DNA of 64,000 bases, from assembly GCA_963815115.1 (NCBI GenBank), contig CAWFFN010000005.1:1-64000 (forward strand), in the 5' to 3' direction. Shown piece after piece: positions 12,129-59,840 of the stretch. A model generated the notes under the pieces. The model saw only the letters and a list, made by a program, of their open reading frames with translations. It was not told where the DNA came from and searched no databases. The stretch's first letter is position 1, and every line of letters starts with the position of its first letter. The stretch is from an uncultured delta proteobacterium. Its GTDB lineage: Bacteria; Desulfobacterota; Binatia; DP-6. Both the position numbers and the translations under genes were made by a program.

Positions 12129-12222
12129 CGCCCCGGAAAACCTTGGCCTATCGGACGCCAGCGGATATCTTCGCAGCAGCGTTGCCATGACCGGTTGAAC
12201 CCGCACTTACTATCCGCGCTCC

Positions 12223-12372
12223 ATGAGCCACCTGCCCGAAGTCGTTCGATCCAAGGCGATCGAGATCGCCAACGCGCTCCTCGAAGAGGGCTATGAGGAA
12301 GGCCGCGCAATCCGGATCGCCATCGCGAAGGCGAAGGAATGGTCCGAGCGTCGCGGCCGCGTCCCTGGCTGA
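12223..12372 (+). CDS. Small YdaT-like protein (5' end possibly damaged by TGA at 12196)
   Basis: (YYPRS)MSHLPEVVRSKAIEIANALLEEGYEEGRAIRIAIAKAKEW; below the ORF-track size cut-off. Confidence 0.75.
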   Translation: MSHLPEVVRSKAIEIANALLEEGYEEGRAIRIAIAKAKEWSERRGRVPG

Positions 12373-12456
12373 CGGTCATGATCTCAGCACCCGATCGCGA
12401 CCTGTCGCCGTCGCGCGGAGTGCGGATGTCGCGATCGGCGACCAGGTGGCCGCCGT

Positions 12457-13050
12457 TCAGTGTACTACCAGCACCGGTGTCCGCGTTCCTCCCAGGACCC
12501 GGTGCGACAGGCTGCCGAGAACCAGGCCAGTCAGCGCGCCCCGGCCTCGACTCCCCATCACCACCAAGTCGGCGTTCTTGGCGGCTTCGACGATCGCCTC
12601 GACGGGCGGCTGGAACACCACGCGGGTCGTGGCCGGAACACCGGCCTGCTCGCAGATCCTGCGACAGTGGGCGACCTGGGCCTCGGCATCGTCCCTGAGC
12701 GCGCCCTCGGCCTCCGCGGACAGGTCGAGCTCGCCGATCCTGGGAACCATGCGCAGCATGTCCGTCCAGCCGGGATCGACCGCGCAGAGCACGAACACTT
12801 CGCCATGCGCCATGGCGGCGAACGCGGCCGCGGTCGCGGTCGCGCGCACCGAGGGGCCCGAGCCGTCCACGGCGACGAGGATCCTGCGCGGGACGGGCGG
12901 GAGCGGCTGAGGCGCAGCGGGCGCCACCTCCTCGGCCAGGGCCATGTCGGCGCATCGTGCCGAGCAGAAGCTCCGGGCCTGCCCGCCGAGCATCAGCTCG
13001 ACCGCGACGTCCCCGAGCACGTGGGACCCGCACACTGGACACTTGATCAT
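12457..13050 (-). CDS. Universal stress protein with N-terminal TRASH/YHS-like Cys domain (copy 1)
   Basis: CPVCG...FCSARC followed by RILVAVDGS...VMGSRGRG...LGSLSHRVL. Confidence 0.88.
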   Translation of the reverse strand: MIKCPVCGSHVLGDVAVELMLGGQARSFCSARCADMALAEEVAPAAPQPLPPVPRRILVAVDGSGPSVRATATAAAFAAMAHGEVFVLCAVDPGWTDMLRMVPRIGELDLSAEAEGALRDDAEAQVAHCRRICEQAGVPATTRVVFQPPVEAIVEAAKNADLVVMGSRGRGALTGLVLGSLSHRVLGGTRTPVLVVH

Positions 13051-13393
13051 CGTGCACCCTCCGCTCCGCTTTCGCGCTTGGTGACCCCTGTCTTCCCCAG
13101 ATTCCCAGGCATGGGGGGCAGCACTGTCGCCCCTCCGACCACGCCTGGCGCAGCGCGCGCCTGCGGGCGGTCCGTCCCGAAGGCGGCCGCTCCCCGGTCG
13201 TCGTGGTATGAGGATCGTCGCGCGAAGCAGGGGCCACGACGCGAGCGTGATCGCGCACACGGGCGAGGAACCAACACTACACGCTGACCACTGAATACTT
13301 CATCCACCGGCGTAATCGCACGCCCCGGCGGCGGCCAGGGACCCTCAGTCGAGCGGGATCGCGCAGGCTGCGTGGCAGGTCGGCCACCGTGAT

Positions 13394-14077
13394 TCACTGG
13401 CCGTCGCCCAGGATCATGGCGTGCTCGATGACGTAGTCGAGCTCGCGGACGTTGCCCCTCCAGGGCTGCGCCACGAGGAGCTTCAGGGTGGCGTTGTCGA
13501 CCCCTCGGTAGGAGCGCTTCATCTCGCGGTTGTGGCGGCGAACGAGGAACTCGATCAGCCCGGGGATGTCCTCCCGGCGGTCCCGCAGCGTGGGCGCGAC
13601 CTTCCGGACGAGGTGGAAGACCTCGTGCATGAGGCCGCTCTTGCCGACCAGGTGATCGAAGTCGAGGTCACGCTCGACCTCCCGGCGGAGCATCTGGGTC
13701 TGCCAGGCGAGCTGGCGATGCTCCAGGATGCGGGCGACCTTGGCGAGGACGTCGTCGAACACGACGGGCTTGAGGATGTAATCCGCCGCGCCCCCGCGCA
13801 ACGCCTCGACCGCGCTCTCGATGCTGCCGTGTGCCGTCATCACCAGCGGAACGGTCTGCGGCGCGACATCGTGCAACTTGCGCAGCACGGCGAGGCCGTC
13901 GGCGCCGGGCATCTGCAGGTCGGTGATGACGAGCGAAAAATCGTGCCCGTCGATCGCCTCGAGCGCAGCCGTACCGTCGACCGCCGTCTCGACCACGTAC
14001 CCGGCGTCCCGCAACACCTCCGCGAGACTGTCGCGTACGCCGGACTCGTCGTCGGCGACCAGGATCGCCTCCGCCAT
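13394..14077 (-). pseudogene. NtrC-family sigma54 response regulator with the AAA+ core deleted in frame and the HTH lost
   Basis: Receiver domain (VADDE, TDLQMPG, YILKP), then VRKVAPT joined directly to LRDRREDIP...WRGNVREL; no Walker A or GAFTGA. Confidence 0.88.
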
Positions 14078-14127
14078 GCTTCCGTCTCTAGCCGACCGTT
14101 CCTTCCCTGAACAAGTCGGCGGGCGAT

Positions 14128-14595
14128 CTACTTCTTCCTCCCGCGTGCCCGGCGCTTCGGGACGGGCACCCGCAGGGTGAGCACCGGAACCGTGGCATGC
14201 CGGACGACGCGCTCGGCGACGCTCCCGATCAGGAAGTGCGACAGCCCTGTGCGCCCGGACGTCGCCATGACGACGCTGTCCGCCCGACGGGCGGCGTCGA
14301 TGATGCGCTGGGACGCATCGCCGATATCGACCCGTACCGTCACCGGCGGCCCTCCGGATCTCAACACCCTGGCCACCAGGCGCTCGAGAAACTGGCGATA
14401 CTCGGGAATCAGATCACCCGGCGCCGGCATGGCGAATGGAACCTCGCCGGGCATGTAGAACGGTGCGAGCACATGCAACACGGTGAGCTTGCCTCGATGC
14501 TCCTTGGCGAGGTTGGCGGCTGTCTTGAGCGCGACGGTCGCCTGGCTGGAGAAGTCGTGAGGGACGAGGATGTGGCGAAAGAGGCTTCGAGTCAT
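14128..14595 (-). CDS. Universal stress protein
   Basis: HILVPHDFS, VMATSGRTG, GSVAERVVRHATVPVL. Confidence 0.92.
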   Translation of the reverse strand: MTRSLFRHILVPHDFSSQATVALKTAANLAKEHRGKLTVLHVLAPFYMPGEVPFAMPAPGDLIPEYRQFLERLVARVLRSGGPPVTVRVDIGDASQRIIDAARRADSVVMATSGRTGLSHFLIGSVAERVVRHATVPVLTLRVPVPKRRARGRKK

Positions 14596-14990
14596 GACTG
14601 CTCCTTCCTCGGATCGGCGAGATGCTCGCGAAGCAAGGGCCGCGCCGCGTCCCCCCAGCCGGACGCGGCAGCCAATTCCGAAAGATCGGAATCCTCGACG
14701 AGCACCTGCGGTCGGACGGCGACGCCGGCCAGCGATGGATACCCGGGGATCCAGTGCACGAGCTGCCTCGCCTCCTCCTTGTCGATCGCGGGCGCGTTGC
14801 GCAGCATGCCCGCGTCGCTCACCTTTCCATGCCAGTGGCGATCCTCGTCTTCGGGCCCCCCCGAGCCGCGGAGGACGATCAGCGTGAGTCGCTGCTCCGC
14901 CCCTTCTGCCCTTTGTACTCGAGCGCAATGTCCTTCCACGATCGGGAATGCGGGAGCATTGCGTGCGGGTCGGGGCTGACGCTTCCGCAC
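14592..14990 (-). CDS. Hypothetical protein (start uncertain)
   Basis: Open frame whose stop overlaps the USP start (ATGA); no motif recognised. Confidence 0.3.
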   Translation of the reverse strand: MRKRQPRPARNAPAFPIVEGHCARVQRAEGAEQRLTLIVLRGSGGPEDEDRHWHGKVSDAGMLRNAPAIDKEEARQLVHWIPGYPSLAGVAVRPQVLVEDSDLSELAAASGWGDAARPLLREHLADPRKEQS

Positions 14991-15140: not shown

Positions 15141-15812
15141 TCACGACCAGGGACTGACCTGCAGCTGGTCTTCCACCTCCCTGACGCCCGGCGCGAAGCG
15201 AGCGGCCCCGACCGTCGCGCGGCGGTCCGCCCATGAGCGAACCTGGCCCGTGAGCTTGACGGTGCCCTCGGGCGTCACCTCGACCCGGATGCGCTTGGCT
15301 TCACGCTCCGCACGCCGCTCCAGGGCATCTTCGATGGCTTCGCGGACCATCTCCGGCTGCACGGGCTTCCCGAAGGAAACCGTCATTGTGTCTGCGACCC
15401 CGCGGACGCCGATGAGATTCCGCACTGCGCGCTCGGCGTCCTCGCGCTCGGTCCACGTATCGACGTTCCCTGCGAGGGTCACCCAGCCATTCGAGACCGT
15501 CGACTGGATGCGATCGTGCGGCACCCACACATTCCACTCGAGCGCGCGCCGGACCGCCTGCGCGATCTCGGTGTCCGTCCGTGCCGAAGCGCCCGGGAGC
15601 TTCACCTGAACGTCATTGGCGACGTCGAGCACACCCACCACGCGGTGCGCGGCGTCCTGGGCCGCCAATCGCTTGGCCCAGCTGCTCACCGTGCCCGTCA
15701 GCGTGACGACACCACGATCGACCTCGACGCCGACCTCGGTCTCCTGGACGCGAGGATCGAACCTGAGCTCCCGGAGCACGTCTTGCTGAATCTGAGAGTC
15801 GGTTTTGGCCAT
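15141..15812 (-). CDS. Triple-BON-domain protein (copy 1)
   Basis: Three GxVTLxGxV...GVxxVxD repeats. Confidence 0.92.
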   Translation of the reverse strand: MAKTDSQIQQDVLRELRFDPRVQETEVGVEVDRGVVTLTGTVSSWAKRLAAQDAAHRVVGVLDVANDVQVKLPGASARTDTEIAQAVRRALEWNVWVPHDRIQSTVSNGWVTLAGNVDTWTEREDAERAVRNLIGVRGVADTMTVSFGKPVQPEMVREAIEDALERRAEREAKRIRVEVTPEGTVKLTGQVRSWADRRATVGAARFAPGVREVEDQLQVSPWS

Positions 15813-15844: not shown

Positions 15845-15860
15845 GGCAGGCACCATGCCA
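15845..15860 (-). promoter_or_regulatory. sigma54 promoter for BON copy 1
   Basis: TGGCATGGTGCCTGCC (GG-N10-GC). Confidence 0.6.
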
Positions 15861-15956: not shown

Positions 15957-16439
15957 TCACGCAGCGGCAGCGACCTGCCGCTCCCCGCGCAACGCGCAGA
16001 TCGCGCCGAGCGTCTCGGCGACGTCGTCGGCGGGGATCTCGCGCTTACTCGACGTCCCCCGCTCCCGAGCGGCCTCCCGGGCGATGTCGTTGAGCGAGAG
16101 AAGGCCGATGACATGGCTCTCCGCATCGACTACCGGCAGCCGCCGCACCTGTGCGGCGCGCATGATGCTCTCGGCCTCGGCGATGGTATCCGTCGCCCGG
16201 CACGAGCGCAGGTCGCGCGCCATGGCGGTTCCCACGCGCAGATGAGTGAGGGGGCCGCCCTGGGTGTACGCCGCCATGCAGACGTCGCGATCGGTGATCA
16301 TGCCCATCCCCCGTCCCTCGTCGTCGACGATGGGGACGCAGCCGCAGTCGTTCTCCCACATCAGCTGCGCGGCACGATCCAGACTGTCACTCGACCGGCA
16401 CGTCTTGACGTTCCGGTTCATCACTTGCTCGACTTTCAT
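15957..16439 (-). CDS. CBS-domain protein (copy 1)
   Basis: MWENDCGCVPIV, GMITDRD, VRRLPVVD. Confidence 0.92.
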   Translation of the reverse strand: MKVEQVMNRNVKTCRSSDSLDRAAQLMWENDCGCVPIVDDEGRGMGMITDRDVCMAAYTQGGPLTHLRVGTAMARDLRSCRATDTIAEAESIMRAAQVRRLPVVDAESHVIGLLSLNDIAREAARERGTSSKREIPADDVAETLGAICALRGERQVAAAA

Positions 16440-16467
16440 GAGGTCCTCCTCGAGGGGCGGCCGCCCC

Positions 16468-16902
16468 TCAGTGTACCGAGACGTCGACGCGGTGTGCCTT
16501 CGCCTGTGCGGCCTTGGGCAGGGTGATTCGGAGGATGCCCTGTTTGAGTTCCGCGCTCGCCTTCGCCGGATCGACGTCGGCGGGCAACGCAACCGTGCGC
16601 TGGAATGCGCCGTAGCGGATCTCCTGGCGATAGTAGTTCTTCTTCTTCTCTTCCGTCTCCTTTCGTGTCTCGCCGCGTACCGTGACTTCGTCCTCGGTGA
16701 CCGAGACGTGGAGCTGATCCTTCTCCACTCCCGGCACCTCCAGCTTCACGGTCACGTCGCCATCGGACTCGCTGACCTCTGCCGCCGGTTCGAGCGGCCC
16801 TCCCTCGCCCTCGTGGGTCCCGAGAAACTCCCGGAAGAAGTCCTCGAACAGGTCGCGGCGCGCGAGCGAATGCAGCGGCCGCCATGGTGTGAGTGCCTTC
16901 AT
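16468..16902 (-). CDS. Hsp20/alpha-crystallin small heat-shock protein (copy 1)
   Basis: EVPGVEK, EIRYGAFQRTVALP, GILRITLPK. Confidence 0.95.
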   Translation of the reverse strand: MKALTPWRPLHSLARRDLFEDFFREFLGTHEGEGGPLEPAAEVSESDGDVTVKLEVPGVEKDQLHVSVTEDEVTVRGETRKETEEKKKNYYRQEIRYGAFQRTVALPADVDPAKASAELKQGILRITLPKAAQAKAHRVDVSVH

Positions 16903-16940
16903 GATGCCTCCTCGTTGGTGGGTCTCTTCAGGCACTCTCT

Positions 16941-17031
16941 CGCAAAGGCCGGGCCATGAGGCTTCGGCATCCGCGCGTCGATGATTCCCGGGAATGCGAA
17001 GGCAGGCGCCAGTGCGTTCTCAGGTTCGCCT
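16941..17031 (-). promoter_or_regulatory. sigma54 promoter plus tandem upstream activator-like sites for hsp20 copy 1
   Basis: TGGCCCGGCCTTTGCG at 16941-16956; TCCCG-N4-TGCGA at 16986 and TCTCA-N4-CGCCT at 17018. Confidence 0.65.
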
Positions 17032-18207: not shown

Positions 18208-18764
18208 CGCCACGCGTCCATCCTCCAGGGTGATGATCCGGTCCGCGAACCCGAACACGCGAGAGTCGTGTGTCACGATGACGGCCACTCGATTCCGGCT
18301 GCAGGGCCATCCGGCGGATCAGCGCCATGATCGCCTGCCCCGTCCGCGCGTCGATGGCGGATGTCGGCTCGTCGGCCACGAGCAAGCGGGAACGATGGAC
18401 CAGCGCCCGCGCAATCGCGACACGCTGCTGCTGTCCGCCGGAGAGCTGCGACGGCAAGGACGTCATGCGGTCCCCGAGCCCGACGCTCTTCAGCATCTCC
18501 GTGGCACGCGCCATCGCCATGGACCTGGCGTCGCCGTCGATGACGAGCGGGACCGCCACGTTCTCCGCGGCTGTCTGGGCGGGAGGGAGGTTGAACTGCT
18601 GAAAGACGAAGCCGACGTTCCTGGCCCGGAACGAGCGTGAGCTCGCCCGGGCGGATGTCCAGGTCCACGCCGCGCAGGGCCGGCACGCGCGAGTTGCCGG
18701 CGCCATAGTCCTTGGTGAGGTTCCGGCAGGCGACACCCGGGGCGCTCTGGGCGATCGAGCTCAT
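18200..18764 (-). pseudogene. ABC transporter ATPase with the Walker A region deleted
   Basis: ALRGVDLDIRPGELTL joined to FRARNVGFVFQQFNL; LSGGQQQRVAIARAL, ADEPT and VTHD retained. Confidence 0.88.
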
Positions 18765-19229
18765 GCTCCCTGGAAGACGATGGCCGGCTCGAGCACGAGC
18801 ACTCGGCGAATGCTCAGGAGGCTCGCCAGCAGCACGATGATCATCACGGCGCCGGCCGACAGCGCGAGTACCTGCCACGGCAGGAAGAACGCGAGTAATG
18901 GCATCGCGCGCTGCGCCACCACGCCGTACAGCGTCGCCAATCCAACTCCCACGCCGTACCCGATGACGCCGACCACCGAGCCCTGCGTCAGGATCATGCC
19001 CACGATGCGGCGATCGTCCGCACCCATCGCCTTGAGGGTGCCAAACTGCCTGAGGTTCTCGATCGTGAAGAGATAGGACGCCTGACCGGCGATCGCGCTG
19101 CTGCTGATTCCGACGAAGCCGATCACCGAATCCGAGCGAAGGCGATCACCCGATCCGATCGAAGCCGAGCACCACGTCCAGCCGATGCCGAGCGGTCCGA
19201 GTCGGAGCGAAGTGACGCTGGTGAGCGGG

Positions 19230-19822
19230 TTACTGCGCTGAGTCGCCCTCCAGCGTCAAGCGGGTGCGGGTCTTCCGCATCGATTCTCCTTTCAGGGTGA
19301 TGTGGTGGGCGTTGTGGACGAGGCGGTCGAGCGCGGCGTCGGCCACGGTCGGATCGCCGATGTAGGTGTGCCAGGCCTTCACCGGGAGCTGCGCGGCGAT
19401 CACGGTGGAGCGCTCGCCATGGCGGTCCTCGATGACCTCGAGGAGGTCCTGGCGCTCTTGCGGCCCGAGGGGCGCCAGCCCCCAGTCGTCCAGGATGAGC
19501 ACATCGGTCTTCGCCCAGCGCGCGAGGAGGCGGGGCAGCGAGCCGTCGCCGCGCGCGACCTGGAGTTCGTGGAGGAGCCGGGGCACGCGGCGATAGACCA
19601 CGGCGTGGCCGTCGCGGCAGGCGTGCTGCCCGAGCGCGCAGGCGAGGTACGTCTTCCCGCAGCCGGTCGAGCCGACCAGGAGGACGTTCTGGCGCTGGCG
19701 GATCCACTCGCCGGTGGCGAGCCGGCGCATCAGCGCCCGATCAAGGCCGCGGGGATGGCGATAATCGATGTCCTCGAGACACGCCGTGCGATCGCGCAGG
19801 CGAGCGAGCTGGAGGCGGCGGG
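19230..19822 (-). pseudogene. istB: IstB helper ATPase, 5' truncated
   Basis: LEDIDYRHPRGLDR, GSTGCGKT, LILDDWG, DAALDRLVH, LKGESMR. Confidence 0.9.
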
Positions 19823-19824
19823 TG

Positions 19825-50522: not shown

Positions 50523-50538
50523 AGCGAAGCCCGTGCCA
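50523..50538 (-). promoter_or_regulatory. sigma54 promoter
   Basis: TGGCACGGGCTTCGCT. Confidence 0.65.
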
Positions 50539-50558
50539 GGCATGCGCCGTGCGGGGCA

Positions 50559-51103: not shown

Positions 51104-51119
51104 TGCAACCCCCGTACCG
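51104..51119 (-). promoter_or_regulatory. sigma54 promoter
   Basis: CGGTACGGGGGTTGCA. Confidence 0.6.
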
Positions 51120-52290: not shown

Positions 52291-52295
52291 GGGGC

Positions 52296-52526: not shown

Positions 52527-52539
52527 GGTTCTCCTCGGC

Positions 52540-53028
52540 TCAGAGCTTGTAGCCGAGGCGCCGCAAGAGCGTCTTGCGCGCCGCGACATCGTTCTCGGTC
52601 TCGACACCTTTCGGGCGTGCGCCGTCGATCACCCCGAGGATGCCACGTCCCGTGGCCGTCTCGGCCACGATGATGTCGACGGGGTTGGCCGTCGCGCAGT
52701 AGATGCCGCAGACCTCGGGCACGTGCCGGATGACGGGCAATACGTTGATCGGGTAGCAATCGCGGAGGAGCACGAGGAAGCTGTGCCCCGCCCCGATCGC
52801 CTCCGCGTTCGTGCGGGCGAGCGTGGCGAGCTCGGCATCCGTGCCGCTCCACCGGACGAGGCAGGGTCCCGACGACTCGCAGAAGGCGAGGCCGAAGGTG
52901 ATGCCGGGCACGGCGGTGACCAGCGCTTCGTGGAGATCCTCGACCGTCTTAATGAAATGTGCCTGGCCGAGAATCAGGTTGACGGCCTCGGGTTTTTGGA
53001 TCGTTACGGAGACGAGATTCAGGACCAT
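52540..53028 (-). CDS. Adenosine-specific kinase family (DUF355) protein, intact copy
   Basis: ILGQAHFIKTVEDL, CATANP, GRGILGVIDG..PKGVE, LGYKL. Confidence 0.92.
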   Translation of the reverse strand: MVLNLVSVTIQKPEAVNLILGQAHFIKTVEDLHEALVTAVPGITFGLAFCESSGPCLVRWSGTDAELATLARTNAEAIGAGHSFLVLLRDCYPINVLPVIRHVPEVCGIYCATANPVDIIVAETATGRGILGVIDGARPKGVETENDVAARKTLLRRLGYKL

Positions 53029-53298
53029 GACTCTTCCTCCGTCAGAGGTTCAATCGCCGTGCCAGATGATGGGCGCAGCAGAATCGTCTCGAGATGTCCC
53101 TCAGGAGCGCGCGCTAGGGAAGCATGCTGGGACATCTTTCCTGGCCATGGGAAGCAATCTCGACCAGGCGGCCGCCTCGGCTCCTCAATGCTCCTCCTCC
53201 GCCTGCACGGCGCCCCGGATCGCCGGGTTGTCGTCAGGCCCGCACGCGCCAGCGCGCCTTCTCCGGACATAGAGCCGCCAAGGCATCCACGCGATAGG

Positions 53299-53832
53299 AT
53301 GAACGAGCCCACGGCCGCCACCCTGGCCTACGGACTCGACGCTGGGCCAAGAGCTCCGTATACGCACCCTACCTCGCCGCCGTGCGGGGGAGCCGCGGCA
53401 TCTCGAGCTCGACCTCACGCGGACCGAGCTCGAGCGCGTGCTGCGCCCGGTCGTCGAGCGCTGACGCGCTCCGGTCGAGCAGGCCCTCCACGATGCCGGC
53501 ATCCAGCCCGCGACGTCGACCGGGTCGTGTTCGCCGGCGGAGCTACCCCGGTGCCCGTCGTCCGCGCCTACTTCGAGAACCTCTTCGGCAGCCCGTCGAG
53601 ACAGGCGTCGACCCGATGGAGTGTGTGCGAGCGGGGCGGGATCCAGGCCGGCGTCCTCAGCGGGGAGGTCGGGAACATCGTCCTGATCGACGTGACTCCG
53701 CTCACCCTGCTCTTCACCACCGCCGCCGACATGCAGACGGCGGTGACCGTCCACGTCTTCCAGGGCGAGCGCCCGACGGCCGCGGACAACGCGTCGGCGA
53801 GTTCAGCCTCGTGGCGCTCCCGCCCGCGCAAT
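53299..53832 (+). pseudogene. dnaK: Collapsed dnaK remnant
   Basis: NEPTAATLAYGLD, VVFAGGAT.VP, VDPMECV, IQAGVLSGEV..IVLIDVTPLTL, FTTAAD.QT.V.VHVFQGER. Confidence 0.9.
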
Positions 53833-53835
53833 CGT

Positions 53836-53910
53836 GAGCCCGGCGCCGAGGAGCGCTTCAAGGAGATCGCTGAGGCCTACGCCGTCCTCAGCGATCCCAA
53901 GCGGCGGGCG
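53836..53910 (+). pseudogene. dnaJ: J-domain fragment
   Basis: AEERFKEIAEAYAVLSDPKRR. Confidence 0.8.
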
Positions 53911-53944
53911 GGCGATGAGTTCCGGCCCGGAACGAAGGGTTCCT

Positions 53945-54035
53945 TTCCGATCGTGGGAAGCTGACCCGCGGATCCTCTTGCCGATGAGAGGCCCCGGCAG
54001 TCACGGTCGACCCAGACCGTGGCAATGATCTTGCA
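53945..54035 (+). promoter_or_regulatory. Tandem activator-like sites plus sigma54 promoter for the site-2 protease
   Basis: TTCCG-N4-TGGGA at 53945, TCTTG-N4-TGAGA at 53976, TGGCAATGATCTTGCA at 54020-54035. Confidence 0.75.
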
Positions 54036-54049
54036 CTTCTTCGTCCCCA

Positions 54050-55315
54050 ATGGACGACGTGACAGCTCCCGAAAGACTTGAAGAAGCTCAGGCTCGCGTC
54101 CGCCCCGGAAAGGCCGTAGTCGGAAGGGAGTCGACCGTGCAGGGGTTGGATGCCGCCGCGGGCAGGGATCGTCACGGGGAGCCGCCGCCGAGAAGGCGGC
54201 ACGGCATCGAGCTGTTCGAGGTGGCGGGTATCCAGATCGCCGTCGATTGGTCCTGGCTCGTGACGTTCCTGCTCGTCCTCGTGAGCCTTTCGGCCGGCTA
54301 CTTTCCGCACCAGCACCCGGGCCACGGCGCCGGGTGGTACTGGGGCATCGGCGCAGTCGCCACGCTGCTCTTCTTCACTTCGGTAGTGATCCACGAGCTG
54401 GCGCACGCGCTCGTGGGCAGGCGACTCGGCCAGGAGGTGCGGCGCATCACGCTGTTCATCTTCGGCGGGATGGCGCATCTCTCGCGGGAGCCGCGAAGCG
54501 CCGCAGTCGAGCTCGCGATCGCCGCCGTCGGACCGATGACGAGCCTGCTGCTGGGTGGGGTCTTCTGGCTGATCGCCTCGTGGCTCGAGGCCATGGACGT
54601 GGGGGCGCTCTGGGTCGCGATGTGCAGCTACCTCGCCTTCATCAACGTCGCGCTGGCCGTCTTCAACCTGCTTCCCGGCTTCCCCCTCGACGGCGGTCGA
54701 ATGCTGCGGAGCGTGTTGTGGCTGCGCTCGGGCGACCTGCGCGCCGCCACGGCGCGGGCCGCCGACTGGAGCAGCGGCATCGCCCTCGGGCTGATGCTGC
54801 TCGGCGCCGTGCAGATCCTCGCAGGCAGCCTGATCGGTGGGCTCTGGTCGATCTTCATCGGCGCCTTCCTGCGTGGCGCCGCGCACGCCAGTTACGAGGG
54901 GGTCGTCGTCGAGCAGGTGCTCAGCGGGACCATCGTGCGCGACGCGATGATCCCGGACCCGATCACGGTGGTGCCCGGCGATCTGACGGTGGCGAGTGTG
55001 GTGGAGAACTACTTTCTCCGATACGGCTTCGGCGGCTTCCCGGTGGCCGACGACGGACAGATCACGGGCGTGCTCTCGCTGGGGGAGGTGAAGCGCTGCC
55101 CGTCGGATCAGCGTGCCTCTCGTCGCGTGCGCGAGTTCATGTGTCCGGCAAGTGACGTCGCCATCTCGGCCGACGCCACCGTGGCGGCGGCGCTTCGCCG
55201 CATGGTGCAGTCGGGCTGCAGCCGATTGCTGGTCGAGGACCGAGGGCGCGTCATCGGCCTGATCACGCAAACGGGCATCACGCGGTTCGTCCAGATCAAG
55301 ACGGAGCTCGGATAG
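54050..55315 (+). CDS. Site-2 protease (M50) with CBS pair, Rip3-like
   Basis: HELAH, FNLLPGFPLDGG, C-terminal CBS motifs. Confidence 0.93.
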   Translation: MDDVTAPERLEEAQARVRPGKAVVGRESTVQGLDAAAGRDRHGEPPPRRRHGIELFEVAGIQIAVDWSWLVTFLLVLVSLSAGYFPHQHPGHGAGWYWGIGAVATLLFFTSVVIHELAHALVGRRLGQEVRRITLFIFGGMAHLSREPRSAAVELAIAAVGPMTSLLLGGVFWLIASWLEAMDVGALWVAMCSYLAFINVALAVFNLLPGFPLDGGRMLRSVLWLRSGDLRAATARAADWSSGIALGLMLLGAVQILAGSLIGGLWSIFIGAFLRGAAHASYEGVVVEQVLSGTIVRDAMIPDPITVVPGDLTVASVVENYFLRYGFGGFPVADDGQITGVLSLGEVKRCPSDQRASRRVREFMCPASDVAISADATVAAALRRMVQSGCSRLLVEDRGRVIGLITQTGITRFVQIKTELG

Positions 55316-55354
55316 CGGGATTATCCAAGCGGCGGAGAGTCCGCTTCCCGTTCC

Positions 55355-55600
55355 TCACGTCGCCATGCGCTCGTCGACGGGGAAGACGCGGCTCGCCTGC
55401 GGGCCCCGCGTGCCGCGCTCGATCTCGACCTCCACGGGGGAGCCCGTTCTGGAGCGCGTCGAAGTCGAGCTCGTGGAGCGCGTTGCGATGGAAGTAGAGG
55501 TCTTCGCCCGCCTCGGTGGTGATGAAGCCGTACCCCCGCGTCCTGAAGACGCGCGCGATCGTTCCCGCCGGCCGCGGGCCCGGCGACTTCCCGAAGCCTC
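55355..55600 (-). pseudogene. Cold-shock-domain remnant of a second HPF-CSD gene
   Basis: GPRPAGTIARVFRTRGYGFI...YFHRNAL...GPQASRVFP; paralog of 50559-50790. Confidence 0.85.
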
Positions 55601-55904
55601 TCGGAGAAGATCGCATGTGCGAGGAGCGTCGCGGTGGTCGTGCCGTCGCCGACCGCATCGCCCGTCCGCTCGGCCGCCTCGCGGAGCATGCGGGCGGCGA
55701 GGTTCTCCTCGGGGTCCTTCAGCTCGACCTTCTTGACGATCGTGACTCCATCGTTGCACACGATCGGGCTGCCCAACTTCTTCTCGATGAGGACGCAGCG
55801 CGATTTGGGACCGAGGGTGACCCGCACCGCATCGGCGAGGACACCGGCGCCGCGCGGATCTTCTCGCGGGCCTCGGAGCGGAAGAAGAGCTGCCTGTGAG
55901 GCAT
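55601..55904 (-). pseudogene. groEL: groEL 5' fragment
   Basis: LADAVRVTLGPK, NDGVTI, GDGTTTATLLA. Confidence 0.92.
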
Positions 55905-55910
55905 GGTCAT

Positions 55911-56852
55911 TTACCGTCCGCACGTCACGGCCCCGCGAGGGGCTGGCCCCGCGTGCAAGCGTCCGATCGCATCGGCGAGGAGCGGAGCGAGGCTCACCAG
56001 CTCACGCGGCGTGCCGGCGTGGGTGCCCATGGCGACGCTGTCGGTGACGACGAGGCGGCGGATGGGAAGGCGGCCGAGGCGCTCCGTGGCCGGCCCAACG
56101 AGGAGGGCGTGGCTGACCGCCACGGTGACGTCCGGGATCGCCCCCGCGTCGAGGAGCGCACTGATGGCCGCCGCCACCGTACCGCCGGTGCTGATCATGT
56201 CGTCGATCACGATCGGCGTTCGACCGCGGACGTCGCCCACCAGGCCGCGCACACTCACCTCCGTGCCGCTCAAGCGGCTCTTGTGCACGAGCGCGATGGG
56301 GAGTTCGAGGAGCGCGGCGTAGCGTCCGGCCAGCTTCACCGCCCCGAGGTCGGGCGAGACGATCACCGCTTCGGGCGCAACTCCGGACCGGATGGTCTCG
56401 GCGAGAATGGCGGCCGCGCTCAGGTGCTCGAGGGGGACCGCGAAGCATCCTTCGATCGCGGGCGTGTGGAGATCGACTGCGACCACGCGGTCGAGGCCAC
56501 CGGCCTGCATGAGCTCGGCAACGAGACGCGCGCCGAGCGGCTCGCCTGCGTTCGTGCGCCGGTCCTGCCGGGCGTAGCCGAAGTAGGGAACGACGCCCGT
56601 GGTGCGCTCGGCTCCCGCACGGCGGCACGCGTCTGCCAGAAGGAGAAGCTCGAGGAGATGCTCGCCGACGGGCGGCCCGGTGGGCTGTACGATGTAGACG
56701 TCATCGCCCCGGACGTCCTCGCGGATCTGAATCTGCACCTCGCCATCGGGAAAATGCTCCAGCACCCGGCTCCCCGGCTTGAGGCCGAGACGCCCGGCGA
56801 CAGCCTCGGCGAGCGCTGGGTTCGCCGTCCCGGCGAAGACGTGGAGCTTCAT
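55911..56852 (-). CDS. prs: Ribose-phosphate pyrophosphokinase
   Basis: FPDGE, PYFGYARQDR, SPDLGA, IDDMISTGGT. Confidence 0.95.
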   Translation of the reverse strand: MKLHVFAGTANPALAEAVAGRLGLKPGSRVLEHFPDGEVQIQIREDVRGDDVYIVQPTGPPVGEHLLELLLLADACRRAGAERTTGVVPYFGYARQDRRTNAGEPLGARLVAELMQAGGLDRVVAVDLHTPAIEGCFAVPLEHLSAAAILAETIRSGVAPEAVIVSPDLGAVKLAGRYAALLELPIALVHKSRLSGTEVSVRGLVGDVRGRTPIVIDDMISTGGTVAAAISALLDAGAIPDVTVAVSHALLVGPATERLGRLPIRRLVVTDSVAMGTHAGTPRELVSLAPLLADAIGRLHAGPAPRGAVTCGR

Positions 56853-57529
56853 CGCCTGGCCCGCGCAGCGGGTGGCCTCGAGGCCGCGGGCTTCGCCCGC
56901 AGATGCTCGCGAAACCAGGCGGTCGCGAGGCGGACCACCTCGTCGAGCGTCCCCGGCTCCTCGAAGAGATGGCTCGCGCCCGGAACGATCGTGAGACGCT
57001 TCTCGCAGCGCAGGCGCCGCAGCGCGTTCTCGTTCATGGCGATCACCGGCCGGTCGTCGCCGCCGACGATGAGCAGCGTCGGCGCGTGCACGCGGGGCAG
57101 AATGGGCATGGCGAGGTCGGGGCGGCCGCCGCGCGAGACCACCGCGGCGACGGCGGGGTCGTTGGCCGCGGCGATGAGCGCGGCGGCGGCTCCCGTGCTT
57201 GCCCCGAAGTACCCGACCGGGAGGTCTCGCGTGGCCGGCTGGCCGCGAACCCATTCGGTGGCGGCGCGCAGCCGGCGGGCGAGTAGCTCCACATCGAAGA
57301 CCAAGGTCCGGTCCAAGGCTTCGTCCGGCGTGAGGAGGTCGAAGATCAGGGTCGCGATGGCGGCGTCCCGCAGCGCGCCGGCGACGTAGGTGTTGCGGGG
57401 GCTCAGGCGGCTGCTGCCGCTGCCGTGCGCGAAGAGCACGATTCCCCGGGCCTCCGGCGGTACACCCAGCAGCCCTTCGAGTACCACCGGGTCGGCTGGA
57501 ATGTGCGAGGTTGCCACGGGAGCGCTCAT
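56849..57529 (-). CDS. Dienelactone-hydrolase-like protein (copy 2)
   Basis: FAHGSGSSRLSPRN, GYFGASTG, HLFEEPG. Confidence 0.92.
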   Translation of the reverse strand: MSAPVATSHIPADPVVLEGLLGVPPEARGIVLFAHGSGSSRLSPRNTYVAGALRDAAIATLIFDLLTPDEALDRTLVFDVELLARRLRAATEWVRGQPATRDLPVGYFGASTGAAAALIAAANDPAVAAVVSRGGRPDLAMPILPRVHAPTLLIVGGDDRPVIAMNENALRRLRCEKRLTIVPGASHLFEEPGTLDEVVRLATAWFREHLRAKPAASRPPAARARR

Positions 57530-57602
57530 TTCATTCCTCCTCCGACGGCGGGCGATCAGGGGCGAGGTAGTCGAGCGCAGCCTTCATTGTGACCTCCCGA
57601 TC

Positions 57603-58229
57603 TCACGCCGCCGAAGCCGCGGCGCGGATGAGCCGCGCCGTGACCTCGTCGTCGGACATCTGCGGAAACTCGTCGTAAAAGGCGCCGACGGCTCCGAAGG
57701 GCTCTGGTGTGGCGAGGACAACGAGCTGGTCCACCATCCGCCGGAGCACGGTGGCCACATCGGGCGGCGCGACGGGAATGGCGAGCACGAGGCGTTCGGG
57801 CCTGTGACGGCGGAGGGCGCGGATCGCGGCGATGACGGTCGACCCCGTCGCGACGCCATCGTCGACGAGGATGACGGTGGCGCGCTCAGGGAGCGCAAGG
57901 ACGCCGCCGCCGCGGAAGCGCCGCTGGCGGGCGGCGATCTCTTCGCGCTGGTGCTCGATCTCGCCGAAGACATAGTGCTCGGAGGCGACGGCGAACGCGT
58001 GGCCCTCTTCATTGAGGTAGAACTCGCCGCCCTCGGCCACCGCGCCGATCGCCAGCTCGGGGTTGCCTGGCGCACGGAGCTTGCGGACGATGACCACGCC
58101 GAGGGAAGCTCGAGGGCGTCGGCGATCTCCGCAGCAGGCACGACCCCTCCGCGGGGAAGCCCGAGGACGACGGTGCGGGGGCGGCCACGATAGGCCCGCA
58201 GCCGCTCGACGAGACGGCGCGGAACCTCA
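57603..58229 (-). pseudogene. Phosphoribosyltransferase (copy 2), frameshifted
   Basis: LGLPRGGV, VRKLRAPGNPELAIGAV and VDDGVATG in different frames. Confidence 0.85.
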
Positions 58230-58256
58230 CGGGCCTCGCAACTTCATGCCGCATCG

Positions 58257-58781
58257 CTACCTCCGCGGTGCCGGGTGGCTCCGCGAGCGCAACGCCCGCT
58301 GGTGCTCGCCGGCGGCGGTCACGACTCCGCCGGCGACGACCACGTCCTCCTCGACGTAGAGGGCACCGCCGCGCAGCAGTTCGTGTTTTGCGCGAGGAAG
58401 CCCATACACGGTCGCGCGCAGGCCACGCAGGAGTCCTGCGCGCGCCGCCACCGCGCCGGAGAGGCAGATGGCGGCGACCGGGATGCCATCGGCATGGGTG
58501 ACGCGCAGGAGGGCATGCAAAGTGCCGTTCTCCCACAGGTACGTTGGAGCTCGGGCTCCCCCGACGATGGCGGCATAGCGGTCTGGATCCGCCGCCTCGA
58601 CGGTGAGATCCGGCTTCACGTCGGCACCTTGCATTCCCCGTGCGAGTCCGGCTGTCGTCGAGACGATCTCGACCACCGCCCCCTCGGCCTCGAAGAACGC
58701 CTTGGGCTCGAGCAGCTCCTCGTCGCGGAAGTCGGTGGGCGCTATGACCATCAGCACGTGCCGGCCTTCGAGCGAGCGCAT
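58257..58781 (-). CDS. DJ-1/PfpI-family protein (small deletions, altered C-terminus; possibly decaying)
   Basis: IAPTDFRDEEL, AAICLS, RATV, VVTA. Confidence 0.82.
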   Translation of the reverse strand: MRSLEGRHVLMVIAPTDFRDEELLEPKAFFEAEGAVVEIVSTTAGLARGMQGADVKPDLTVEAADPDRYAAIVGGARAPTYLWENGTLHALLRVTHADGIPVAAICLSGAVAARAGLLRGLRATVYGLPRAKHELLRGGALYVEEDVVVAGGVVTAAGEHQRALRSRSHPAPRR

Positions 58782-58788
58782 ATCGGCT

Positions 58789-58804
58789 AGCAACCGGGTT
58801 GCCA
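58789..58804 (-). promoter_or_regulatory. sigma54 promoter
   Basis: TGGCAACCCGGTTGCT. Confidence 0.75.
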
Positions 58805-58907
58805 GACCATTCTCCCGGAGCGAAGGGGTTACTTGCGACTGTGGGAACGTGGGTGCACCCCCGACCGCCGGACCGCGCGCGCCGAAGCGACAGCCCGCCT
58901 GCGGTCG

Positions 58908-59306
58908 TCAGACCTCCTGGTCCTGAAGCGTCTCGCGCAGCTCGTGCTCGAGCTGCTCGACGCGTTGCTCCAGTATCCCGATACGCTGCGTCAGCGTGGT
59001 CAGCTCCTCGAGCCCGCCACCGGCCGTCCCCTTGCGGCCGGCATCGGCCAGCCGGGTGAGCTGCTTCTCGAACGACTCGACGAGGCGACGCCCCCGGGTC
59101 TCGAGGTCCTTCAGGGATCGATCGGCTCGGCTGCGTAGTTCATCGTGCACCTTGCGAGCATCCCGATTCGATCTCCGCGCGTGTCCGCGGGCGAAGGTCG
59201 TCGTCTCGCGGCGGATCTGCCCTATGAACCATTCGCCCTCGCTGCGGAGGTGCTTCACGGAATCGCGGACTTGTGCAACCGAATTCCCTGTGGTCGAGCG
59301 TGGCAT
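58908..59306 (-). CDS. Phasin-like coiled-coil protein
   Basis: Amphipathic helices ending EELTTLTQRIGILEQRVEQLE. Confidence 0.55.
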   Translation of the reverse strand: MPRSTTGNSVAQVRDSVKHLRSEGEWFIGQIRRETTTFARGHARRSNRDARKVHDELRSRADRSLKDLETRGRRLVESFEKQLTRLADAGRKGTAGGGLEELTTLTQRIGILEQRVEQLEHELRETLQDQEV

Positions 59307-59399
59307 GCAGCTTCCCTCCGGGGTGGAATGACGCCATGCAGGTGGCATGGGCTGGCTCTCTCAGGAAGGTCCGAGAGGCTGGAAATTTGGCGGAGGTTT

Positions 59400-59413
59400 T
59401 CTCAGTAATGAGA
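59400..59413. promoter_or_regulatory. Perfect copy of the candidate activator palindrome
   Basis: TCTCA-GTAA-TGAGA in the divergent intergenic region. Confidence 0.55.
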
Positions 59414-59824
59414 GGCAAGGGGATTGCCTGAGCAAACAGTCGAGCAGCCTCGTCGTGCCCTCTGTCACCAGATTCGGATCGTCGATGTCGGGCCAGGTCT
59501 CGCCGGTGCAATAGCCGTGCTCGCGCAGTGCCTCGAACCGACGCTCCCGCTGTATCCGCTCGTACGCCGGCCCTTCTCCGTCGCGGGCGCTCGATCAGGA
59601 CTCGGTGTCATCCTTCATGAAGCTCAAGGTGGAACAATCGTACCGGGAAGACCACGTCGGGTTCTCCCCGAGGGGCGCGTGGCGGAGATATTGCAGCTCC
59701 GCCGAGCTCATGCGCGCTTTACGCGACGTCGTGCAGCGCGCCCGCGCGCCAGCACGCTGCGCAGCTCGGAGCTGTCCGAGCCGACGATCGCCGTGGCGAG
59801 CGTGGCGATCGGCCGCAGAAGTGC

Positions 59825-59840
59825 TGGCATGCCACCTGCA
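59825..59840 (+). promoter_or_regulatory. sigma54 promoter for the djlA-like-acs-pdh operon
   Basis: TGGCATGCCACCTGCA followed by AGGAGG and ATG at 59868. Confidence 0.7.

Follow-up and report, generated by a model that had tools for sequence, protein, structure and literature searches.

The DosR/DevR regulon of Mycobacterium tuberculosis contains many USPs, the alpha-crystallin HSP20, a CBS protein, a P-type ATPase and a WS/DGAT triacylglycerol synthase; haem or GAF sensor kinases feed into DosR, which is of the NarL/LuxR type and works at promoters of sigma-70 type. In Myxococcus xanthus, Bretl et al. (2018, PMC6211767) reportedly described NmpRSTU as an oxygen-utilisation regulon. In a later account, the globin kinase NmpU and the NtrC-like NmpR act on hypoxia-induced sigma-54 promoters in front of CBS, USP, P-type ATPase/cbb3 and hemerythrin genes (McAllister et al. 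2025, PMC11841059). The low-oxygen-activated (lxa) locus of Burkholderia cenocepacia is an island of ~50 genes with an FNR/Anr-type TGA-N6-TCA motif (Sass et al. 2013, PMC3721108).

We analysed 64,000 nucleotides of DNA (the window) from an uncultured soil Binatia bacterium, in which a first-pass annotation had listed 15 motifs as an island-wide sigma-54 dormancy regulon whose wiring it did not recognise as described. A precedent exists: NmpRSTU is a published circuit of sigma-54, an NtrC-type regulator and a haem-globin kinase (PMC11841059), and we regard it as a close functional precedent for the putative Binatia circuit, which is probably oxygen-sensing. Both combine a haem protoglobin histidine kinase with an NtrC-like response regulator, sigma-54 promoters preceded by an inverted repeat, a self-regulated regulator operon, and CBS, USP, P-type ATPase/cbb3 oxidase and hemerythrin targets. 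They differ in the site (TTCCCA-N4-TGGGAA here, GCGCA-N5-TGCGC for NmpR, whose box is not enriched here: 2/28 versus 51/965), in its arrangement (usually one phased site per promoter, against two sites 14–15 bp apart) and in the number of promoters (~35 predicted, against 7). In addition, the Binatia kinase gene directly adjoins the activator gene, the gene content is dormancy-like, with HSP20, BON, DJ-1, phosphoribosyltransferase, WS/DGAT and PCMT genes added, and the host belongs to a different phylum. The DosR/DevR regulon is matched in gene content, in haem or GAF sensor kinases and in the theme of hypoxia and growth arrest; however, the candidate regulator here belongs to the AAA+ sigma-54 activators, its main sensor would be a globin rather than a GAF-haem domain, and we consider the two wirings analogous, not homologous. 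The lxa locus is likewise an island with many USPs, heat-shock proteins, a cation ATPase, two-component genes and one motif repeated intergenically, whereas sigma-54 is used here.

All 15 motifs were found where first placed (the earlier coordinates of minus-strand sites are shifted one base to the left relative to the 15-nt TGG..TGC core). A sigma-54 matrix trained de novo on intergenic sites of the same genome reproduced the canonical consensus (TGGCAYG-N4-TTGCW), and with a cut-off of ≥9.5 bits for a good site, 12 of the 15 qualified, while those at 27555, 41467 and 51104 scored below 9 bits. Three comparable sites, at 14633, 30532 and 53050, were absent from the earlier list. No RNA run was found to contain the region; the evidence for promoters and regulon is in silico throughout, and start codons are approximate because genes were called with a home-made codon-usage caller; most of the listed motifs are very probably real sigma-54 promoters upstream of stress-survival genes. 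As first reported, the sites in general lie just upstream of same-strand genes. The site at 50524 overlaps the longest start of its own gene, and the first site, singled out as lacking a same-strand gene, does have one. EM on 28 promoter-upstream regions further returned a 16-bp palindrome, TTCCCA-N4-TGGGAA, with a log-likelihood of 100, the runner-up motif reaching 57. The sites and palindromes of the window are as follows (centres are distances from the -24 TGG).

12173–12187, minus strand: sigma-54-like site, 14.4 bits, without palindrome, 115 nt before an IS630-like HTH ORF (10988–12058); possibly a chance match
14633–14647, minus strand: sigma-54 site, 9.4 bits, 38 nt before a Usp gene, the first of a Usp–activator-remnant operon; counterpart of the autoregulatory promoter at C12:36333 and counted among the palindrome-bearing promoters
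14676–14691, unstranded: palindrome TTCCGAAAGATCGGAA, 18.1 bits, centred 36 nt upstream of the TGG in the 14633 promoter, null p 0.0005
15846–15860, minus strand: sigma-54 site, 11.2 bits, before a BON-domain gene (15141–15812); no palindrome detected upstream
16942–16956, minus strand: sigma-54 site, 11.4 bits, before HSP20 (16468–16935) and CBS (15957–16592) genes
16985–17000: palindrome of the 16942 promoter, 14.9 bits, centre at -36
24784–24798, minus strand: sigma-54 site, 10.9 bits, before alpha/beta-hydrolase (24131–24769) and phosphoribosyltransferase (23439–24164) genes
24861–24876: palindrome of the 24784 promoter, 16.4 bits, centre at -70
26031–26045, minus strand: sigma-54 site, 23.1 bits, the best in the window, before rubrerythrin-like (25502–26155) and cytochrome c (25021–25599) genes; no clear palindrome in the upstream scan (best 6.8 bits, null p 0.054)
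27468–27483: palindrome of the 27555 site, good at 15.4 bits, centre at -80
27555–27570, plus strand: weak sigma-54-like site, 2.0 bits, before Usp (27565–28224) and CBS (28237–28677) genes
30532–30546, minus strand: sigma-54 site, 12.5 bits, preceding a truncated, paralogous copy of the adenosine-kinase promoter plus 5' region
30619–30634: palindrome of the 30532 site, 17.2 bits, centre at -80
30900–30914, plus strand: sigma-54 site, 11.2 bits, before an acyltransferase gene (30930–31799); without palindrome
41467–41482, minus strand: weak site, 4.5 bits, within the BON–Usp junction; probably not a promoter
42233–42247, minus strand: strong sigma-54 site, 18.2 bits, before BON (41531–42208) and, in the same probable operon, double Usp (40345–41466) and a 2832-aa GH94 glucan-synthase-like gene (31834–40332); the only palindrome is degenerate (7.3 bits, centre at -48)
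48803–48817, minus strand: sigma-54 site, 9.8 bits, before HSP20 (48322–48759), CBS (47811–48293) and more same-strand genes
48913–48928: palindrome of the 48803 promoter, 13.3 bits, centre at -103
50524–50538, minus strand: uncertain sigma-54-like site, 12.1 bits, TCGC at -12, without palindrome, at the start of a YbaK-type gene (50046–50543)
51104–51119, minus strand: weak, uncertain site, 8.3 bits, without palindrome
53050–53064, minus strand: sigma-54 site, 11.7 bits, before an adenosine-specific kinase gene (52540–53028)
53138–53153: palindrome of the 53050 promoter, 13.7 bits, centre at -81
53944–53959: palindrome of the 54020 promoter, 15.6 bits, centre at -68
54020–54034, plus strand: sigma-54 site, 14.9 bits, before an M50 peptidase–CBS gene (54050–55315)
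58790–58804, minus strand: sigma-54 site, 16.6 bits, before DJ-1/PfpI (58257–58793), with same-strand phosphoribosyltransferase, hydrolase and PRPP-synthetase genes beyond (55911–58097)
58832–58847: palindrome of the 58790 promoter, 11.1 bits, centre at -35
59825–59839, plus strand: strong sigma-54 site, 19.6 bits, before a TerB-like gene (59868–60512); no clear palindrome in the upstream scan (6.6 bits, null p 0.061)

The genes behind these promoters are of stress or dormancy type (Usp, HSP20, BON, CBS, DJ-1, M50–CBS and phosphoribosyltransferases); the dormancy label is a reading of this gene content. The window also looks partly decayed, with IS elements, fragments of split P-type ATPase, RtcB and Hsp70 genes, and an activator copy that is dead; some of its gene breaks may be assembly errors.

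Among 20 candidate sites scored, the palindrome occurs at null p ≤0.01 upstream of nine window promoters, including six of the 15 sites first listed. Palindromes of ≥12 bits number 11 in the window, where the genome-wide rate is 1.8 per 64 kb. Each of the 13 promoters listed for C12:33–98 kb carries the palindrome, and pairs of palindrome and sigma-54 site account for ~35 promoters genome-wide and about half of those in the window. Measured from the -24 TGG, the palindrome centre lies ~36 to 96 nt upstream, at intervals of ~10.5 bp, one helical turn: distances cluster at 36–38, 47–50, 60, 65–70, 73, 80–81, 88–90 and 96 nt (for all 35 pairs and a 10.5-bp period, Rayleigh R is 0.63). Tests outside training and across genomes lessen, but do not remove, the circularity of a palindrome matrix trained on the same promoters. 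Of 167 palindromes located outside the training regions, 21 are accompanied by a sigma-54 site of ≥9 bits within 20–110 nt against 3.9 expected, and the 19 pairs outside training retain the phasing (R 0.52–0.59, p 0.006–0.001). This phased palindrome, which ties sigma-54 promoters together in the window, genome-wide and in other Binatia, is new here. We predict that it is bound by one NtrC-type enhancer-binding response regulator and, because it is common to them, many promoters appear to be co-regulated; in the window, only nine promoters share it.

The promoters could instead be real without forming one regulon, several of the genome's activators (one rpoN, ~38 intact Sigma54_activat genes) driving a few each and the island only gathering sigma-54-dependent genes. 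Eleven of the 20 scored sites lack a clear palindrome at null p ≤0.01, including 15846, 30900, 12173, 50524 and the high-scoring 26031 and 59825, and may be targets of other activators or chance matches. However, a single helically phased palindrome is common to the nine window and all 13 listed C12 promoters, and a palindrome is present, at 96 nt, in the paralogue of the 26031 promoter (C5:1786078). Promoters of BON orthologues in other Binatia genomes carry the palindrome at 36–89 nt in six of six cases, and three of six TerB-like orthologue promoters in relatives have both sigma-54 site and palindrome, suggesting that in the window the palindrome has been lost locally or has degenerated. 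We therefore consider separate activators unlikely.

For a shared regulator, association (autoregulation, neighbourhood and conservation) points to an NtrC-type activator on another contig, C12, as the likely reader of the palindrome; the candidate pool comprises the ~38 activators. Its operon (C12:36388–39542), located inside a second promoter cluster, encodes a Usp, then a REC–AAA+ activator with GAFTGA, then a Protoglobin–HisKA–HATPase kinase, and its own promoter has both the palindrome and a sigma-54 site. The globin domain of the kinase matches HemAT (PDB 1or4, E 1.4e-12) better than AfGcHK of Anaeromyxobacter sp. Fw109-5 (5ohe, E 6.5e-9), a distant relative in which a globin sensor likewise precedes a HisKA/HATPase kinase. 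The same Usp–activator–globin kinase order is found, among the other Binatia, in L012, where the activator has HTH_8. Given that this second, more intact cluster carries the regulator genes and that palindrome pairs occur across the genome, the regulon is genome-wide, not island-wide as first described. Two related genes lie in the window.

13394–14077, minus strand: NtrC-type activator remnant, receiver domain and AAA+ lid present, no HTH
42338–44194, minus strand: GAF-domain histidine kinase, kinase core 54% identical to that of the C12 globin-coupled kinase

The sigma-54 interaction core of the remnant is deleted in frame and a stop precedes the C-terminal part; on both sides of the deletion it is 83–86% identical to the C12 copy. 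Lacking the AAA+ core in its own copy, the window has no working activator, and its promoters would therefore be activated in trans. The GAF kinase is a candidate second input into the C12-type regulator.

The dead local copy would also fit promoters left over from a regulon that no longer works, as would the frameshift just before the HTH of the C12 activator in the assembly, and the presence in the window of split genes and of transposase genes (IS21, IS630-like and DDE). Yet one short contig of run X1 (depth ~5), the only one to do so, reads the C12 gene open, which fits a consensus error in the 12-contig assembly (our guess is that it is long-read), and the target genes are mostly intact. 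Moreover, diverged paralogous promoters have kept the -24/-12 elements and the palindrome while their spacers drifted, indicating selection; the spacers of the paralogous 16942 and 48803 promoters differ, with the -24/-12 elements kept. That the island is a decaying relic of this kind is improbable.

Chance was also weighed, as GG-N10-GC is very frequent in 70% G+C DNA and gene-adjacent examples could have been picked. The loose pattern TGG-N9-TGC exceeds its frequency in shuffles (57 in the window versus 33.7), but the genome mean is 56.8 per 64 kb and the loose pattern is therefore not enriched relative to real sequence. Chance would also suit the three listed sites below 9 bits and 12173, which precedes an IS gene and has no palindrome. 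The tight pattern TGGC-N7-TTGC, in contrast, occurs nine times against 1.6 in shuffles and 2.55 per 64 kb genome-wide, placing the window joint top among all 64-kb windows. Sense sites of ≥9.5 bits were found in 14 of 49 window upstream regions versus 226 of 3808 (5.9%) elsewhere (Fisher p 8.5e-7), and antisense sites in only 1 of 49; paralogous promoter pairs (HSP20 x2, BON x2, adenosine kinase x2) make these counts non-independent. Training the matrix again with the window and its paralogous islands left out still gave 12 of 49 versus 217 of 3740 (p 2.2e-5). With a phased palindrome co-occurring and conserved in other genomes, chance is very improbable overall and already largely ruled out for the 12 good sites. 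Least probable of all is control by an FNR/Anr-type regulator at sigma-70 promoters with the sigma-54 motifs secondary, which would suit gene content like that of the lxa locus (two-component systems, cation ATPase, heat-shock proteins and USPs; PMC3721108), but TGA-N6-TCA is not enriched in window intergenic DNA (1 versus 2.3 expected; TTGA-N6-TCAA, 0) and CRP/FNR-family genes were not found among the window's 63 ORFs.

Building on what was observed, namely the motifs, how they are enriched, oriented, spaced and conserved, and which domains the regulators contain, we favour as probable a model of at least two stress islands whose sigma-54 promoters serve a hypoxia or growth-arrest programme under a palindrome-reading NtrC-type activator (best candidate, that on C12); the choice of activator, the signal and the physiological role are what we infer. 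O2 (or NO/CO) would be sensed by the haem-globin kinase, with a second input possibly from the paralogous GAF kinase in the window, and the kinase would set the phosphorylation state of the activator. On the correct helical face, the activator would oligomerise at the palindrome and then remodel the promoter-bound sigma-54 polymerase. The genes induced would include Usp, HSP20, BON, CBS, DJ-1, phosphoribosyltransferases, wax-ester/triacylglycerol synthases, cbb3-type oxidase and protein-repair enzymes, together a putative survival programme for hypoxia or growth arrest.

In other Binatia, pairs of palindrome and sigma-54 site adjoin the activator orthologue at L012, L013 and L014. Around the globin-kinase orthologues (50.7 kb), six of eight palindromes are paired, with distances of 37, 38, 48, 69, 69, 69, 79 and 79 nt. 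Among 24 genomes from the same family, 15 were found to have the globin kinase, which lies ~7 kb from a BON orthologue in G005 and ~6 kb from a TerB-like orthologue in G012.

The genome that holds the window is 6.89 Mb long at 70% G+C and assembled in 12 contigs, with the window forming the first 64 kb of contig C5, and the closest relatives of the window's proteins come from Candidatus Binatia metagenome-assembled genomes. We called 63 window ORFs with a codon-usage model for which long, GC3-rich ORFs were the training set, and annotated them with Pfam; a model built from long ORFs without the GC3 filter was dropped, as it chose antisense shadow frames. Stress-type genes crowd the interval from 12 to 60 kb, and insertion-sequence genes are also found in the window:

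12-60 kb: Usp (five), BON (two), CBS (at least four) and HSP20 (two)
12-60 kb: phosphoribosyltransferases, alpha/beta-hydrolases, GYD, dodecin and adenosine-specific kinase
12-60 kb: rubrerythrin-like protein with cytochrome c
12-60 kb: M50 peptidase-CBS fusion, PRPP synthetase, DJ-1/PfpI and TerB-like protein
12-60 kb: GAF histidine kinase
19230-21030, minus strand: IS21 pair, IstB-like ATPase and Mu-transposase-like gene
3-287: DDE fragment (IS gene)
10988-12058: IS630-like HTH ORF (IS gene)

Split or partial genes include those for a P-type ATPase, RtcB, Hsp70/DnaJ and FtsX. The IS21-type pair is flanked by an ORF with a MacB-like periplasmic domain and one encoding the C-terminal part of an FtsX permease (18761-19126 and 21131-22045), an arrangement suggesting that the element at 19230-21030 has interrupted an ABC-transporter permease gene. 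There are two P-type cation ATPase loci (2369-5097, plus strand; 7153-10062, minus strand), with a cytochrome c gene and a DUF4405 gene between them; the first seems to be in two pieces, N-terminal (2369-3673) and C-terminal (4183-5097), with about 500 nt between them. For several segments of the window there are paralogues in other parts of the genome, at 86-97% identity near 1.78 Mb on C5 and also on contigs C12, C7 and C9.

A sigma-54 matrix learnt from the genome's own intergenic, gene-oriented sites converged on TGGCAYG-N4-TTGCW, which we take to be the canonical sigma-54 consensus. At a threshold of at least 14 bits, 94 of the 200 genome matches fall at oriented upstream positions, with non-coding DNA making up just 17.5% of the genome. 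All 15 of the -24/-12 motifs listed by the first-pass annotation are present where it placed them, and 12 of these score at least 9.5 bits, while those at 27555 (2.0 bits), 41467 (4.5 bits) and 51104 (8.3 bits) are weak. Three comparable sites, at 14633, 30532 and 53050, were absent from that list. Density was then compared with two backgrounds. The loose pattern TGG-N9-TGC occurs 57 times, against 33.7 in shuffled sequence and a genome mean of 56.8 per 64 kb; it was dropped as evidence because its density equals the genome's own despite beating the shuffles. For the tight pattern TGGC-N7-TTGC there are 9 matches, where shuffled sequence gives 1.6 and the genome as a whole 2.55 per 64 kb, placing the window joint first among all 64-kb windows of the genome. 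Sense-strand sites of at least 9.5 bits were found in 14 of 49 window upstream regions and in 226 of 3,808 elsewhere (Fisher P = 8.5e-7), with antisense sites at the same threshold in only 1 of the 49. When the window and its paralogous islands were excluded from training, the matrix gave 12/49 versus 217/3,740 upstream regions (P = 2.2e-5). Overall, about 12 of the 15 listed sites, together with the three additional ones, make up a real and biologically meaningful motif cluster. A look-up of RNA runs for window positions 52000-61000 found none that covers them. The genome has one Sigma54_DBD (rpoN) gene, with an open frame of 497 aa, and 49 matches to Sigma54_activat (PF00158), about 38 of them full length; no intact Sigma54_activat gene lies within the window.

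On the minus strand at 31834-40332, a 2,832-aa cyclic beta-1,2-glucan synthase-like protein of the GH94 type combines GT2-like, glucoamylase-like and two GH94 domains; its gene lies 12 nt downstream of a double-Usp gene and probably shares an operon with the BON gene that the sigma-54 promoter at 42233 precedes. Four further paralogues are encoded elsewhere in the genome.

Intergenic sigma-54 sites form a second cluster at 33-98 kb on C12, where 14 score at least 11.6 bits. The genes behind these sites are:

C12, 33-98 kb: Usp, CBS, cytochrome c and a phosphoribosyltransferase-Usp pair
C12, 33-98 kb: AAA_33 kinase, patatin and methyltransferase
C12, 33-98 kb: pyruvate kinase, a PKS/ACC pair and several WS/DGAT

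Two stretches of this cluster (C12:59649-76229 and 85530-97589; loci L004-L006) encode a PfaA-like multidomain PKS (2,729 aa), a phosphopantetheinyl transferase, a 1,853-aa eukaryote-like fused acetyl-CoA carboxylase and five WS/DGAT proteins, with several of these genes behind sigma-54 promoters. This PKS/ACC/WS/DGAT set suggests stress-induced synthesis of storage or specialised lipids.

We searched for a shared activator site in the 240 nt upstream of 28 island promoters, comprising 15 from the window (at least 9.8 bits) and 13 from C12. No exact 4+4 palindromic dyad was present in at least 6 of the 28 regions; relaxed k-mer counts and expectation maximization (EM) then revealed a 16-bp palindrome. 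Palindrome-constrained EM on the 28 regions returned TTCCCA-N4-TGGGAA with a log-likelihood of 100, versus 57 for the next motif, and k-mer counts agreed, with TGGGAA in 10/28 regions versus 188/3,774 and TTCC-N8-GGAA in 4/28 versus 13/3,774. The palindrome is present at all 13 C12 promoters, its centre lying 37-38, 47-49, 68-69 or 169 nt before the TGG. In the window, nine promoters carry it at a null P of ≤0.01 (14633, 16942, 24784, 27555, 30532, 48803, 53050, 54020 and 58790), three have marginal matches (42233, 26031 and 59825; P = 0.04-0.06) and eight candidate promoters lack it. Palindromes of at least 12 bits number 11 in the window, 10 of them intergenic, versus 1.8 per 64 kb genome-wide.

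Palindromes outside the training regions (n = 167) served as a validation set, in which 21 had a sigma-54 partner scoring at least 9 bits at a distance of 20-110 nt, versus 3.9 expected by chance. The spacings of the 35 intergenic pairs fall at 36-38, 47-50, 60, 65-70, 73, 80-81, 88-90 and 96 nt. At a period of 10.5 bp, the Rayleigh R was 0.63 for all 35 (P about 1e-6) and 0.52-0.59 for the 19 pairs outside training (P = 0.006-0.001). Read from these distances, the spacing between palindrome and promoter is face-of-the-helix phasing. An inverted repeat near target promoters is a mark of NtrC-family regulation, and the palindrome, phased and 36-96 nt upstream, is a candidate site for such an activator. 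For five palindromes, at 14933, 27468, 51454, 59399 and 60526 (11.4-15.4 bits), the interval of 20-117 nt contains no sigma-54 site that reaches 3 bits; these palindromes may be orphan sites, sites serving weak promoters like 27555 or sites acting at another distance.

Three pairs of window promoters are paralogous, namely those at 16942 and 48803 (HSP20), at 30532 and 53050 (adenosine kinase) and at 15846 and 42233 (BON), and in all three the intergenic sequence has strongly diverged. The HSP20 pair has kept its -24/-12 elements and the adenosine-kinase pair both these elements and the palindrome, while the BON promoters do not align at all, yet each has a sigma-54 site. That diverged promoters keep these elements argues for selection on them. 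As the members of each pair are paralogous, they are not fully independent counts.

The window does hold the remains of an activator. The ORF at 13394-14077 (minus strand) encodes a receiver domain and an AAA+ lid without the sigma-54 interaction core, according to Pfam; in its translation '...KVAPT' joins 'LRDRREDIP...' directly, and a stop precedes the usual C-terminal part. From its sequence, this copy is an activator whose ATPase core was lost in frame. Using tblastn, we found an 83-86% identical paralogue with the core at C12:36898-38166, in an operon ordered Usp, REC-AAA+ activator and Protoglobin-HisKA-HATPase kinase. The C12 activator has REC, Sigma54_activat and lid domains, with GAFTGA visible. 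As assembled it ends early and has no HTH; a slip at C12:38100-38130 (L003:18100-18130) cuts the HTH off this NtrC-type activator, and a Fis-type HTH is encoded in another frame after the one-base slip. The operon was checked against low-depth contigs from four DNA runs, which cover it incompletely. One contig, from run X1 and of depth about 5, differs exactly at the slip by a substitution plus the deletion of one base, and with both differences the frame is open to 450 residues, with the HTH in frame. Activator orthologues in three other Binatia metagenome-assembled genomes (loci L012, L013 and L014) carry HTH_8. Because the X1 contig is open and the orthologues have this domain, the C12 gene is probably intact and the frameshift likely a consensus error, albeit on thin coverage. 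An activator of the FlgR/CtcC type, which has no DNA-binding domain and needs no enhancer, was considered and rejected in view of the HTH in the other frame and the HTH_8 of the orthologues. The assembly may hold other indel errors, so the 'split' genes of this genome need care.

Adjoining the activator, the globin kinase (C12:38226-39542) contains Protoglobin, HisKA and HATPase_c domains, an arrangement repeated at L012, and the PDB matches of its globin domain are HemAT and AfGcHK. The GAF kinase of the window has a kinase core 54% identical to that of the globin kinase.

Palindrome-promoter pairs also occur beside the activator orthologues in the other Binatia genomes, with one at L012, one at L013 and four at L014; these six precede HSP20 genes, a CBS-activator operon and cytochrome c genes. 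Among BON orthologues from five other genomes, all 6 promoters have the palindrome (10.7-18.4 bits), with a -24 element of the GGCA type following at 36, 49, 69, 69, 70 or 89 nt; for the TerB-like orthologues, 3 of 6 promoters have the full pair. The surroundings of 13 globin-kinase orthologues, 50.7 kb in all, contain 8 palindromes, of which 6 are paired, with distances of 37, 38, 48, 69, 69, 69, 79 and 79 nt. Among 24 genomes from the same family, the globin kinase was found in 15 and the BON and TerB-like genes in only 4 each, with neither in the four searched genomes of the same genus. The regulator is accordingly widespread and the window cargo accessory. The two are close together in some relatives, the globin kinase lying about 7 kb from the BON orthologue in one genome (G005) and about 6 kb from the TerB-like orthologue in another (G012).

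The closest described system to the proposed Binatia circuit, which would operate in a similar way, is NmpRSTU of M. xanthus (PMC11841059). As described there, the haem protoglobin kinase NmpU and the hybrid kinase NmpS act on the NtrC-like NmpR, which binds GCGCA-N5-TGCGC in two copies spaced 14-15 bp and switches on 23 genes from seven sigma-54 promoters, with induction of the regulon by hypoxia demonstrated (PMC11841059). Its targets comprise, among others, a CBS gene at the head of the operon to which it belongs, USP, HemN with a hemerythrin and a P-type ATPase with a cbb3 oxidase (PMC11841059). The wiring, which the first-pass annotation did not recognise as described, has a published precedent in this system. 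The M. xanthus phosphorelay passes through the hybrid kinase NmpS and NmpT; on the Binatia side, a hybrid HisKA-HATPase-REC-REC kinase is encoded at C5:1327681 behind a palindrome-bearing sigma-54 promoter. As in M. xanthus, a protoglobin-domain histidine kinase is encoded with an NtrC-like regulator (C12 and L012). In contrast, the predicted binding site and its architecture differ, and the NmpR box, allowing up to one mismatch, was not enriched in the island promoter regions (2/28 versus 51/965 in the background). The predicted Binatia regulon is also about five times larger and adds HSP20, BON, DJ-1, phosphoribosyltransferase, WS/DGAT and PCMT genes. The best myxobacterial matches to the activator are 42-48% identical, and the one myxobacterial locus annotated (L051) has no CBS or globin neighbours.

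In gene content, the Binatia set parallels the mycobacterial DosR regulon. DosR/DevR is a NarL/LuxR-type response regulator working with the GAF-haem kinases DosS and DosT, whereas the candidate Binatia regulator is NtrC-type; a GAF kinase is present in the window. A parallel in gene content also exists with the Burkholderia lxa locus, which uses an FNR/Anr-type TGA-N6-TCA box (PMC3721108). This box is not enriched in the window's intergenic DNA (1 versus 2.3 expected), in which TTGA-N6-TCAA does not occur. Our literature search found no publication joining a globin-coupled histidine kinase with sigma-54 in those terms, and among the matches listed for sigma-54 with dormancy, USP and alpha-crystallin, none mentioned sigma-54.

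At the level of sequence, the analysis shows very probable sigma-54 promoters, a phased palindrome and an NtrC-type regulator co-encoded with a globin-coupled kinase behind such a promoter. We propose that the C12 activator would bind the palindrome and switch on about 35 promoters, and that the globin kinase would control it in response to O2 or another haem ligand. The window GAF kinase may feed the same activator, and the window promoters would be served in trans. The reading of the first-pass annotation, a co-regulated sigma-54 stress regulon, is supported for about half of the promoters by an independent, conserved and phased activator site. Its 'island-wide' scope does not hold, as the predicted regulon extends beyond the island and the island is without a working regulator.

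A joint reading, which we advance tentatively and consider somewhat short of probable, is that a DosR-like programme for dormancy or hypoxia, with some 35 or more promoters, operates in Binatia wholly via sigma-54. One NtrC-type activator would act from a single phased TTCCCA-N4-TGGGAA site, and its inputs would be the globin kinase together with paralogous GAF/PAS kinases built on the same kinase core. Patchy accessory islands would join by carrying the two-part promoter module and be regulated in trans, even where their own regulator copy has decayed. If true, this would provide a nearly complete and testable regulatory code for surviving oxygen loss or growth arrest in members of an uncultured, globally distributed soil phylum, consisting of promoter, activator site, spacing rule and candidate sensor with regulator. 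It would also mean that the survival set of USP, alpha-crystallin, CBS and storage-lipid genes is wired in a third way, through sigma-54, beside DosR in mycobacteria and FNR/Anr in Burkholderia, and what Myxococcus does with the small NmpR regulon would be seen here on a much larger scale. Single activator sites in helical phase offer a clean model for short-range action of enhancer-binding proteins, and the motif pair could be used to annotate regulons in Binatia metagenomes.

Palindrome-promoter pairs outside the training regions precede further genes, among them:

Other genome pairs: Usp, a cbb3-type oxidase cluster, a WS/DGAT and KASIII genes
Other genome pairs: amine-oxidase-like flavoprotein and YbaK-type protein

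Two paralogous fusions of protein-L-isoaspartate O-methyltransferase (PCMT) with an erythromycin-esterase-like domain, at C5:72800-74791 (L007:8800-10791) and C9:1764937-1766832 (L106), have sigma-54 sites of 19.4 and 17.4 bits, each with a palindrome. Finally, a hybrid HisKA-HATPase-REC-REC kinase at C5:1327450-1331500 (L095; promoter C5:1327681) is preceded by a sigma-54 site of 21 bits whose palindrome lies 89 nt away, and adjoins gas-vesicle genes (GvpA-like, GvpG and GvpL/F) on the opposite strand.
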